The notes beneath the pieces are model-generated. The model was not told the DNA's origin, did not search any database, and saw nothing but the letters and a program-made list of their open reading frames with translations. Position numbers and translations under genes: made by a program. 32,000 nucleotides of DNA. It comes from Edaphobacter aggregans (lineage in GTDB: Bacteria; Acidobacteriota; Terriglobia; Terriglobales; Acidobacteriaceae). The stretch spans positions 4,470,001 to 4,502,000 of the forward strand of contig NZ_RSDW01000001.1 in NCBI RefSeq assembly GCF_003945235.1, read 5' to 3'. Below, piece by piece: positions 14,969 to 17,900 of this stretch. Every line of letters starts with the position of its first letter. Positions within the stretch are counted from its first letter, which is position 1.

Positions 14969-17900
14969 ATGTCTGGTCAGTCCAACAACAGCGAAATGCG
15001 CGCGATCCGCAGCCGTCTAGATTTTTCCAAGATCCCAACAGCCATTCAGATTCCCAACCTCATCGAGGTCCAGCGCCGCAGTTATGAGCGCTTCCTGCAG
15101 ATGGATAAGCTCCCCCAGGAGCGCGAGGACAATGGTCTGCAATCGGTCTTCACCTCGGTGTTTCCTATCACCGACTTCCGCAACGTCTCCGAGCTTGAGT
15201 TCGTCGACTTCTCCATCGGCAACTGGGAGTGCAAGTGCGGCTACCTCAAAGGTCTGAACCACCTTCGCACGGCCTGCACCCATTGCGGCCACATGGTTAT
15301 TACCGACCCGTTCCATCCGGGCGATGTGCTTTGCAACTTCTGCGGAACGTACAACAAGAACACGCCTGACTTCTGCACCAAGTGCGGCGACCCTGTCGGT
15401 CTGCAGTTGAAGTACGACCAAGCAGAGTGCGAAGAGCGCGGCATGACCTACTCGGCTCCGCTGAAGGTCACGATCCGGTTGAAGATCTACGACAAGGATC
15501 CGGAGACCGGCGTCAAGAGCCTGCGCGATATGAAGGAGCAGGAAGTCTTCTTCGGCGACATTCCTTTGATGTCGCAGAACGGCACCTTCATCGTCAACGG
15601 CACTGAGCGCGTTATCGTGTCACAGCTGCACCGTTCGCCTGGCGTCTTCTTCGAGACGGCGAACAACCGTACCTACTTCCTCGGCAAGATCATTCCGTAC
15701 CGCGGCAGCTGGGTTGAATTCGAGTACGACCAGAAGAACACCCTGTACGTCCGCATCGACCGCAAGCGCAAGTTCCTCGGAACGATCTTCCTGCGTGCGC
15801 TTGGTCTGCGTACGGATGAAGAAATCCTCAAGACTTTCTATACGGTCGATACGATCAACGTGAAGGACGGCAAGCTGAACTGGAAGGTCGTCGCTGAAGG
15901 TACTCCGACGAACCTGCAGGGCACGCGTCCGGCTGTGGCAATCACGGTCAAGGGTGAAGAGCTTGCTCCGGCGACCCGCAAGATCTCTGCGCATTCGCTG
16001 AAGGGCCTGCGCAGCCACAAGGTCGAGCAGGTTGAGGTTGAGACCAGCGAGTTCGATGGCGCGATGACGGCTTCGGACGTCGTTGATCTGACCACGGGCG
16101 AGCTGCTCTATGAAGCCAACCAGGAGCTGACTGCCGATAAGCTGCACAAGATTCAGCAGTCGGGCGTCACCAGCTTTGAGGTCTTCTTCCCCGAGCGCGA
16201 TGACGTAGGCAACATCATCACGAACACGTTGCGCCGTGACTCGGTTCGCAAGCCTGAAGAGGCGCTGATCGAGATCTACCGCAAGCTGCGTCCCGGCGAC
16301 CCGCCGACGCTCGACACGGCGACTGCGCTCTTCGAAGGCATGTTCTTCGATCCGCGTAAGTACGACTTCTCGCGCGTAGGCCGTCTGAAGTTCAACATCA
16401 AGCTGTATGAGAATCAGGAGGCTACCGGGCTCGACAAGCGCACGCTGACGCCTGAGGACTTCTACGGCACGATCCGCTACCTGCTGAAGCTGCGCAAGAA
16501 TATTGGCGTGGTGGACGACATCGATCACCTTGGCAACCGCCGCGTTCGCGCTGTCGGCGAGCTGATGGAAAATCAGTTCCGCATCGGCCTGGTCCGCATG
16601 GAGCGCGCGATCAAGGAAAAGATGTCGGTCTATCAGGAGATGTCGACGGCGATGCCGCATGACCTCATCAACGCGAAGCCTGTGATGGCCGCGATTCGTG
16701 AGTTCTTCGGCTCTTCGCAGCTGTCGCAGTTCATGGACCAGACCAACCCGCTCTCGGAGATTACGCACAAGCGCCGCCTGTCGGCCCTTGGGCCCGGTGG
16801 TCTGTCGCGTGAGCGCGCTGGCTTCGAAGTCCGCGACGTGCACCCGACGCACTATGGCCGTATCTGCCCGATTGAGACGCCGGAAGGTCCGAACATCGGT
16901 CTTATCTCGTCGCTGAGCTGCTTTGCGCGCATCAACGAGTACGGCTTCATTGAGAGCCCGTACCGCCGTGTGAAGGATGGCAAGGCTCTGGACTATGTTT
17001 CCGTGGTCAACGCCGGTGAGTCCGGTCTGCGCCAGGGCGATCACCTCGAGATCAACGAGGCCCGCAAGCTGAATGAGCAGCTGAAGAAGGACAAGAAGCG
17101 CACCATGGATCTTGCTCCGTTCAGCTTCTACCTCTCGGCATGGGAAGAGGATCGCCACACGATCGCGCAGGCGAACATCGAGCTCGACGACCACCTGAAC
17201 ATCGTGCAGAATGTTGTCGACGCTCGCCGTCAGGGCAACTTCGTGCTCGTCAACAAGTCCGAAGTGGACTACGTTGACGTTTCGCCGAAGCAGCTTGTGT
17301 CGGTCGCCGCTTCGCTCGTTCCGTTCCTTGAGCATGACGACGCGAACCGCGCACTGATGGGCGCGAACATGCAGCGTCAGTCGGTTCCTCTGCTGGTTGC
17401 AGAGGCTCCGTTTGTCGGTACCGGTATGGAAGGCGTTACTGCTCGCGACTCGGGCGCCGTCATTCTGGCCAAGCGTAACGGCATCGTGGACTCGGTTGAC
17501 TCGGAGCGCATCATCATCCGCGTTGAAGGCGAGCATCACCCCACGCAGCTGTCGCGTGAGGTTGGCTCGGACATCTACCAGCTCACGAAGTTCAAGCGTT
17601 CGAACCAGAACACCTGCATCAACCAAAAGCCGATCGTTCGCAAGGGTGATCGCGTTCTGAAGGGTGCCGTCATTGCTGACGGTCCTTGCACGGAGCAGGG
17701 CGAACTCGGTCTCGGTCGTAACGTGCTGGTGGCCTTCATGCCTTGGCGCGGTTACAACTTCGAGGACGCGATCCTCATCTCGGAAAAGCTGGTCCGCGAG
17801 GACTACTACACCTCGATCCACATCGAGGAGTTCGAGATCGAAGCGCGCGACACGAAGCTTGGGCCGGAAGAGATCACGCGTGATATTCCGAACGTCAGCG

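Follow-up and report, generated by a model that had tools for sequence, protein, structure and literature searches.

A lineage-specific insertion within the beta1 lobe of acidobacterial RNA polymerase is predicted to form two zinc ribbons

Bacterial RNA polymerases carry lineage-specific inserts, and the closest described counterparts of the element reported here are SI1 and SI2 in the beta subunit of Escherichia coli and SI3 in beta-prime, which are clade-restricted domains in surface loops between universally conserved blocks and which evolve faster than the core (PMC11515920). A 2024 survey distinguished five insertion sites in beta (uD2-uD5) and two fold classes of insert, BEAN and HABAS, and at no point mentions zinc, ribbons or cysteines (PMC11515920). 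Such an insert can serve as a docking site, as illustrated by the binding of PcrA to SI1 of beta (PMC8318588). Here we analyse a stretch of 32,000 nucleotides from Edaphobacter aggregans (hereafter the window; assembly GCF_003945235.1, contig NZ_RSDW01000001.1, positions 4,470,001 to 4,502,000 of the forward strand), in which rpoB encodes a 62-residue insert with these same general properties. Unlike SI1, SI2 and SI3, which have BEAN/BBM2 or HABAS/SBHM folds, this insert is predicted to consist of zinc ribbons; it also lies outside the five beta sites of the 2024 survey and is much smaller than those inserts.

A further point of comparison is the zinc-binding domain (ZBD) of the beta-prime subunit, which contacts nucleic acid and regulators. 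Both the ZBD and the ribbon module are small, metal-stapled units on the surface of the polymerase, the metal and the surface position being predicted in the case of the module. In contrast to the ZBD, which belongs to beta-prime and lies on the clamp and RNA-exit side, the insert is in beta, on the beta1 lobe; moreover, its first ribbon is followed by a second one, and the canonical ZBD is still present in the genome. At the level of protein families the insert resembles DZR and DZR_2, which likewise consist of two consecutive C4 ribbons within approximately 50-60 residues. Whereas DZR modules are free-standing or terminal, the insert sits inside a polymerase subunit.

A cysteine-rich insert and its predicted fold

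When aligned to the beta subunits of the PDB, RpoB of the window falls into two blocks, with residues 26-96 of the open reading frame (ORF) matching residues 10-76 of the E. coli and Vibrio proteins and residues 161-289 matching residues 80-212, which leaves about 61 residues extra (Table 1). The gap between the blocks was spanned by none of the 53 matched PDB beta sequences, which include those of Proteobacteria, Firmicutes, Actinobacteria, Deinococcus-Thermus, Cyanobacteria and plastids. An earlier note on this DNA, made by a model from the letters alone (the sequence-only reading), had counted about 60 extra residues between the beta blocks and had recognised four cysteine pairs in them. 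The alignment bears out the former, and translation of positions 15221-15418 reproduced the latter exactly, with all eight cysteines encoded by TGC (codons at 15230, 15236, 15275, 15284, 15332, 15341, 15374 and 15383) and arranged as CxC-x12-CxxC-x15-CxxC-x10-CxxC. This amounts to 8 cysteines in the 62 residues of the insert, compared to 7 in the remaining 1445 residues (binomial P ~8e-10). The G+C content of the insert (58%) equals that of the rpoB gene. Since the insert is also in frame and is kept across several classes, a recent horizontal acquisition or a mobile element was rejected as its source.

We modelled the first 227 residues with AlphaFold2, using 52 homologues. In this model the insert forms short beta-hairpins with the cysteine knuckles in their turns, with predicted local distance difference test (pLDDT) values of 85-94, compared to the lower values of 61-89 (mean 75) obtained when the insert was modelled alone. 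Foldseek searches with the 227-residue model returned RpoB chains only and were uninformative on the insert, and those with the insert-only model returned nothing below E=0.5, with generic ribbon fragments and no RNA polymerase insert domains among the matches. The nearest Pfam family is DZR (PF12773, double zinc ribbon). Of 46 diverse inserts, 43 reach E<=0.01 against it (best E 8.7e-8), but the E. aggregans insert itself scores 22.9 bits, below the gathering cut-off of 27.3. The insert has the two consecutive two-knuckle ribbons of the DZR architecture, except that its first knuckle is CxC and not CxxC. As for the BEAN (BBM2) and HABAS (SBHM) folds, neither was recovered, and the Pfam and PDB profile matches were to zinc ribbons only.

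Together with the near-invariance of the cysteines described below, the DZR matches and the confident AlphaFold2 prediction support the view, already put forward in the sequence-only reading, that the insert comprises two consecutive C4 zinc ribbons in the N-terminal lobe of beta (beta1, or protrusion). These ribbons are predicted to bind metal, which is presumably zinc. The same reading correctly located the canonical zinc sites of bacterial RNA polymerase in beta-prime and not in beta, and both of these sites are intact in the rpoC gene of the window.

Distribution and conservation of the insert

A word-indexed search with the insert and short flanks returned 300 RpoB fragments, and those that carried a name were labelled Acidobacteria. 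In species-representative genomes we found at least 590 matching stretches, of which the best 80 were analysed. Nearly all of these 80 were labelled as Terriglobales-type Acidobacteriota, including Granulicella, Edaphobacter, Terriglobus, Bryocella, Terracidiphilus and Candidatus Solibacter, with several at 99-100% identity and two under other phylum labels. All eight cysteines and their spacing were identical in 80/80, which represent 49 distinct insert sequences. To count cysteines without bias, we chose sequences by alignment of both flanks and not by cysteine pattern. Variable cysteines among carriers of the insert had been named in the sequence-only reading as grounds for abandoning it; instead, each cysteine position was occupied by cysteine in 96-98% of the 268 distinct homologues selected in this way. 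All eight were present in 241 of the 268, and most of the other 27 were visibly frameshifted or truncated fragments.

A phmmer search with the insert alone against 1.84 billion cluster representatives, carried out without an index, gave 215 matches. These included RpoB fragments with the module near residue 77 at identities down to 34%, the rest being multi-repeat RanBP2-like zinc-finger proteins, and no other protein context for the whole module was found among the matches of this single-sequence search. Starting a second search from the carrier that diverged most added named carriers from Aminicenantes/Saccharicenans and Blastocatellia/Pyrinomonadaceae. In deep lineages, those of Aminicenantes type among them, the cysteines were retained although insert identity had fallen to 34-50%. 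A third search provided negative controls, in that RpoB proteins of Rokubacteria, Deltaproteobacteria/Myxococcaceae and Pseudobdellovibrionaceae bridge the two blocks with 5 residues (n=78), whereas carriers bridge the same blocks with 66-68 residues (n=248). The taxonomic range that the sequence-only reading had left to be mapped thus takes in Terriglobia, Blastocatellia and Aminicenantes, and excludes the insert-free relatives just named; it rests on named carriers, the cluster names of the deep variants being mostly uninformative as to class. The insert occupies one site in one clade, is absent at the same site in the other clades sampled and has conserved blocks on both sides, as is characteristic of lineage-specific inserts. 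By these sequence comparisons it is old, is present in several classes of Acidobacteriota and is absent from the nearest other lineages sampled.

In published work, the comparison with insert catalogues that the sequence-only reading had proposed showed that a zinc-ribbon insert is not part of the 2024 survey of beta and beta-prime inserts (PMC11515920). Searches of the full-text literature, which did not cover Lane and Darst 2010, found no description of an acidobacterial, zinc or ribbon-type beta insert, and a full-text search for the insert names 'In2/In3/In4' found nothing. Lane and Darst 2010 reportedly assigned numbers to beta inserts and had acidobacterial genomes in their set; the present insert may therefore already appear in that catalogue, though unanalysed.

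The spacing between knuckles was highly constrained. Of 260 sequences, 259 keep the x12 spacer between knuckles 1 and 2, and all 260 keep the x10 spacer that separates knuckle 3 from knuckle 4. Length varies in two places only: within knuckle 2 (CxxC or Cx4C) and in the 13-17 residues that lead from it to knuckle 3. In about 16 homologues, Cx4C (CRNP[AS]CG) replaces CxxC at the second knuckle (15275-15286), with the other spacings unchanged. Apart from the cysteines, the conserved positions are G, W, K (of CKC), G, L, G, L, R (of HLR), a glycine that follows every knuckle, N, and the D-P-V behind knuckle 4, while most remaining positions are variable. Identity at non-cysteine positions of the insert was 26-39% in three full-length deep homologues, compared to 47-75% in the flanking beta1 sequence and 55-68% over the whole protein, and by this measure the insert evolves faster than its flanks.

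We also observed several unusual forms of the locus. In one deep relative (L081:3361-4188; ENA ERZ25068762, contig ctg99557), rpoB carries a single-ribbon insert, GSWACSCGDLEGIHHVEEETVCSYCGDRVHLKF, with the pattern CxC-x14-CxxC, 4 cysteines and about 31 extra residues. This gene is in frame, has well-conserved flanks and lies in the canonical nusG-rplK-rplA-rplJ-rplL-rpoB context; the evidence consists of one contig at 2x coverage with frameshifts elsewhere on it. The single ribbon may represent the ancestral state of the module, or else a state to which it was reduced. Singleton in-frame deletions inside the insert were found in six further sequences (P0057, P0090, P0098, P0114, P0118 and P0061), where the connections measure 31-52 residues and the junctions lie at the 'CG' following a cysteine knuckle, a pattern that would be expected if repeated knuckles had recombined or had caused template switching. 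Such forms may reflect errors in reads or assembly, or they may be genuine but rare. In addition, an acidobacterial-type rpoB with the insert occurs in metagenome-assembled genomes labelled Gammaproteobacteria (L009, 99% identical to the insert region of E. aggregans), Candidatus Eisenbacteria (L080) and Chrysiogenales (P0311), all of which are probably mis-binned or mislabelled.

Similarity of the two predicted ribbons to known zinc ribbons

Searches with phmmer and Foldseek both surfaced the N-terminal ZBD of beta-prime/gamma among the matches to the insert. In a pairwise BLASTP comparison, ribbon 1 aligned without gaps to residues 64-91 of beta-prime from the same genome, with 12/28 identities (E=5e-6). 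Searched against all PDB sequences, a ribbon-1 profile matched best the beta-prime/gamma ZBDs of Cyanobacteria, Staphylococcus, Clostridium and Bacillus (E 0.0012-0.02), followed by every other bacterial beta-prime in the same register. Using hhalign, ribbon 1 was matched to the beta-prime ZBD with a probability of 96.8% (E=3e-10, score 40.1, 29 columns), compared to scores of 12.3±3.7 (maximum 26.5) for 200 permutations of the ZBD alignment in which the cysteine columns were fixed, and a shuffle test with position-specific scoring matrices gave p between 2e-5 and 5e-4. The score far above this cysteine-fixed null indicates a similarity well beyond the shared CxC-x12-CxxC spacing.

Compared to the beta-prime ZBD pattern (D-[WY]-E-C-x-C-G...C-x-x-C-G-V-E-V, with CxC-x12-CxxC), ribbon 1 has identical cysteine spacing and shares the W-E-C-x-C-G start, the loop lysine and histidine, and C-x-x-C-G. 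By contrast, two features of the ZBD, its VEVT strand and its basic patch (KYKR..K.R), are not conserved: the loop of ribbon 1 reads x-L-K-G-L-x-H-L-R, in which only K and R are partly kept, and the module is located in beta. Ribbon 1 is, on these sequence comparisons, a probable diverged copy of the ZBD that would have arisen by duplication from the adjacent rpoC.

Ribbon 2 behaved differently in the same kind of analysis. PDB profile and phmmer searches matched it, at a generic level, to the double zinc ribbons of DZANK1, to eL40 and to the fingers of RBM10 and ZNF265, and hhalign aligned it weakly with the ZBD (score 20.9) and with ribbon 1 over a single 10-residue knuckle only (score 17.4). 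The RanBP2-type family (PF00641) was matched by 8 of 46 inserts at E<=0.01. Ribbon 2 fits the pattern C-x2-C-x3-N-x6-C-x2-C, with weak matches to RBM10, ZNF265, eL40 and RpoP (Rpb12), but has V/L-L where the family consensus, W-x-C-x(2,4)-C-x3-N-x6-C-x2-C, has W-x, and it differs from the RNA-binding RanBP2 subclass in having neither the tryptophan before the first cysteine nor the RNA-binding residues. At the sequence level, ribbon 2 is a generic zinc ribbon of the DZR, RanBP2 or eL40 type. We additionally noted proteins with 5-13 tandem repeats resembling ribbon 2 (P0127, P0182, P0195 and similar). Of these, P0127 (1297 aa, 13 matched stretches) begins with a hydrophobic, apparently membrane-spanning segment, after which comes a repeat rich in Pro and Gln. 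P0182 and P0195 resemble arrays of RanBP2-type fingers.

We favour a sequential pairing, in which the four cysteines of ribbon 1 (Table 1) would form metal site 1 and the four of ribbon 2 metal site 2, because each ribbon matches as a whole unit, ribbon 1 with the one-zinc ZBD and ribbon 2 with DZR-type ribbons, and because the indels are confined to knuckle 2 and the inter-ribbon stretch. Both beta-prime zinc sites being intact, the enzyme would carry four structural metal ions if this model is right. A nested arrangement, with Cys115, 118, 134 and 137 as an RpoP/Rpb12- or GATA-like ribbon and Cys100, 102, 148 and 151 clamping the ends of the insert, appears improbable to us. It would account for the alignment by phmmer of C115-C137 with GATA fingers, for the profile alignment of the same stretch with archaeal RpoP (E ~1e-3) and Rpb12, and for the single ribbon of the L081 contig, which joins knuckle 1 straight to a knuckle-4-like CxxCGDxV. 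However, this last variant comes from that single low-coverage contig, ribbon 1 as a unit matches the ZBD far above chance even with the cysteine columns fixed, the whole of ribbon 2 likewise matches ribbons of the DZR, eL40 and RanBP2 kinds, and length varies in C118-C134, where a nested arrangement would place the core of its inner ribbon. Even harder to credit is a rubredoxin-like iron site or a redox or thiol switch, whereby iron or reversible disulfides at the knuckles would let oxidative stress or metal status alter the polymerase. Sequence cannot distinguish zinc-ribbon from rubredoxin knuckles, CPxCG is the commonest form of knuckle 3 (with proline in 32% at position 47), and there were weak profile matches to a 'CPxCG-related zinc finger' and to the rubredoxin model of protein kinase G. 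Yet the nearest relatives of known metal, namely the beta-prime ZBD, DZR, eL40 and RanBP2 fingers, bind zinc, and the insert occurs in aerobic soil Terriglobia as well as in Aminicenantes and hence does not track one redox lifestyle.

Placement, possible role and gene context

The beta1 lobe, which comprises Taq beta residues 18-138 and 333-392 and corresponds to the protrusion of Rpb2, is situated close to the transcription bubble, at its upstream part (PMC4593161). Four antiparallel strands form the sheet at the core of the lobe; the RNA polymerase interacting domain (RID) of Mfd pairs with edge strand 4 at Taq I108-E110, beside the 103-105 hairpin loop (PMC3001067). By homology, the CarD RID uses the same beta1 site, the E. 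coli equivalent of which is I117-K118-E119 (Westblade et al. 2010, PMC3001067). In the AlphaFold2 model, strand 74-83 is followed by the insert (85-146), a short helix (151-157) and a long hairpin (161-176/183-200, all in model residues), and the counterpart of this docking patch, M200-K-E in ORF numbering, is near the tip of the long beta1 hairpin. The modelled insert thus departs from the beta1 sheet after strand 2, ahead of the short helix that leads into strand 3, at the opposite end from the Mfd/CarD patch. Since it is at the other end of beta1 strands of approximately 16 residues, we judged direct overlap with the Mfd/CarD site, and hence direct occlusion of it, to be unlikely.

Taking the evidence as a whole, we lean, with confidence only a little above even, towards a lineage-specific beta1 insert of two C4 zinc ribbons, the first derived from the ZBD, that acts as a rigid docking knob. 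The metal ions would keep an otherwise unstable 62-residue module rigid, and the rigid module would form a fixed knob on the surface of the polymerase, where the insert is presumably exposed. This knob could offer an additional surface to be contacted by a lineage-specific factor or, close to where beta1 and beta2 flank the cleft, by a nucleic-acid backbone. A docking role seems most likely; other lineage-specific inserts and the beta-prime ZBD act in this way. Several observations weigh against this interpretation. The similarity of ribbon 1 to the ZBD spans only about 29 residues, and it was not significant in the library-wide single-sequence phmmer search, where no beta-prime appeared among the 215 matches. 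The CarD/Mfd patch faces the upstream fork, and the insert is a long way from it, at the other end of the beta1 sheet. The insert has a modest net charge, with a mean of about +1.9, and has lost the KYKR patch that makes the ZBD basic, which argues against strong nucleic-acid binding. Finally, the conserved non-cysteine positions are mostly glycine, hydrophobic residues and tryptophan, as expected of a scaffold, while surface positions vary between classes, which argues against one conserved partner interface.

The modest charge, the lost basic loop and the variable surface lend substantial weight to a purely architectural reading, which we nevertheless regard as rather unlikely: a stable, metal-stapled bulge that was fixed early in the phylum and folded into beta1, has no partner of its own and at most stiffens or stabilises the beta1 lobe. 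Conservation that centres on a scaffold of cysteine, glycine, tryptophan and hydrophobic residues, and the faster evolution of the insert relative to its flanks, would both be expected in this case, and the gain in pLDDT from 61-89 alone to 85-94 in the beta1 context fits packing of the insert on beta1. Moreover, some lineage-specific inserts have little known function, SI1 itself having been called 'enigmatic' (PMC8318588). On the other hand, the eight cysteines and their exact spacings are kept across classes with only about 35% insert identity, and two polar or charged residues are conserved as well, K101 (97% K) and R112 (98% R), at alignment positions K8 and R19. That an essential enzyme keeps these 62 residues so strictly suggests that selection does more than merely tolerate them. 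More ambitious than the docking knob, and a little more doubtful again than the architectural bulge, is a scenario in which an acidobacteriotan ancestor copied the beta-prime ZBD from rpoC into the neighbouring rpoB and thereby placed a second ZBD-like module, with ribbon 2 added, on the opposite pincer of the polymerase, the beta1 lobe. This module would have a functional contact of its own, for which other bacteria have another solution or none; its partner could be DNA (promoter or non-template), nascent RNA, or an initiation or elongation factor peculiar to the phylum. The L081 single ribbon would be a relic or a reduced state.

The gene that carries the insert encodes RpoB, as shown by the complete Rpb2 domain set of its product, in which Rpb2_1, 2, 3, 45, 6 and 7 each exceed the Pfam cut-off, and by the conserved rplL-rpoB-rpoC order. 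Homologue starts fall near an ATG at 14969 (MSGQSNN...), which is likely to be the true start of rpoB. An ORF on the opposite strand (15017..15421, minus) was rejected as a gene, being a shadow ORF within rpoB. The spacer between rplL and rpoB (14330-14968) is about 600 nt long; an Rfam scan of it found no family, and a plus-strand scan for terminator-like and promoter-like sequences found no match. The product of rplJ is unusually long for L10, with an Ala/Pro/Glu-rich tail of about 60 C-terminal residues (…AAPAEAAVAAPAEAPVAEAVASEAPVAEAP…). The usual secE-nusG-rplK genes are not upstream of rplA (region 9997-12305), where we found a 512-aa protein with DUF346 repeats and a papain-like Peptidase_C70 domain (9997-11535) and a 202-aa ORF without a Pfam match (11539-12147); the deep relative L081 retains the nusG-rplK-rplA order. 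Further away the context is ordinary and unrelated to the insert, with a membrane-fusion protein of the HlyD family and an RND transporter of AcrB type (1067 aa) upstream at 547-5033, and a histidine kinase (27975-29270) and a PAS-GGDEF-EAL protein (30212-31948, minus) downstream of the operon.

Table 1. Features of the rpoB region, in positions of the window
Feature	Positions	Strand	Details
rplA	starts 12306	+	first gene of the operon order rplA-rplJ-rplL-rpoB-rpoC
rplJ (ribosomal protein L10)	13124-13813	+	229 aa
rplL	starts 13955	+	
rpoB (RNA polymerase beta subunit)	14933..19456	+	1507-aa ORF opening with TTG
Lineage-specific insert, NWECKCG...GDPVGLQ	15221..15406	+	62 residues, ORF residues 97-158; in place of E. 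coli beta residues 77-79
Ribbon 1 (predicted)	15224..15304	+	Cys100, 102, 115, 118; CxC-x12-CxxC; ZBD-like
Inter-ribbon linker, DPFHPGDV	15305..15328	+	length-variable stretch
Ribbon 2 (predicted)	15329..15397	+	Cys134, 137, 148, 151; C-x2-C-x3-N-x6-C-x2-C
M200-K-E	15530..15538	+	counterpart of E. coli beta I117-K118-E119 (Mfd/CarD RID docking patch), from alignment to E. coli/Vibrio beta
rpoC (beta-prime subunit)	19649..23839	+	
Core of the canonical beta-prime ZBD in rpoC	19838..19921	+	intact; aligns with E. coli beta-prime 47-110 including C70, C72, C85 and C88

Taken together, our comparisons point to a lineage-specific RNA polymerase insert of a new fold class, at a new site and with an apparent origin in the beta-prime ZBD. 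If the insert works as proposed, bacterial beta would become a metal-binding subunit, the equivalent of which is, to our knowledge, known so far only for archaeal and eukaryotic Rpb2. In addition, the fold repertoire of lineage-specific inserts would widen beyond BEAN/BBM2 and HABAS/SBHM, and the locus would provide a clean case of domain transfer between the two large subunits. The motif GNWECKC...CGDPV is a sharp signature by which acidobacterial rpoB may be recognised in metagenomes, and since insert-bearing rpoB genes occur in metagenome-assembled genomes that are probably mislabelled, it could also be used to check binning and flag mis-binned assemblies. Acidobacteriota are among the most abundant soil bacteria, and we know of no acidobacterial RNA polymerase that has been solved or biochemically studied. 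Given that Mfd and CarD are known to dock on the beta1 lobe, the ribbon module could mark a regulatory contact that is specific to this phylum.

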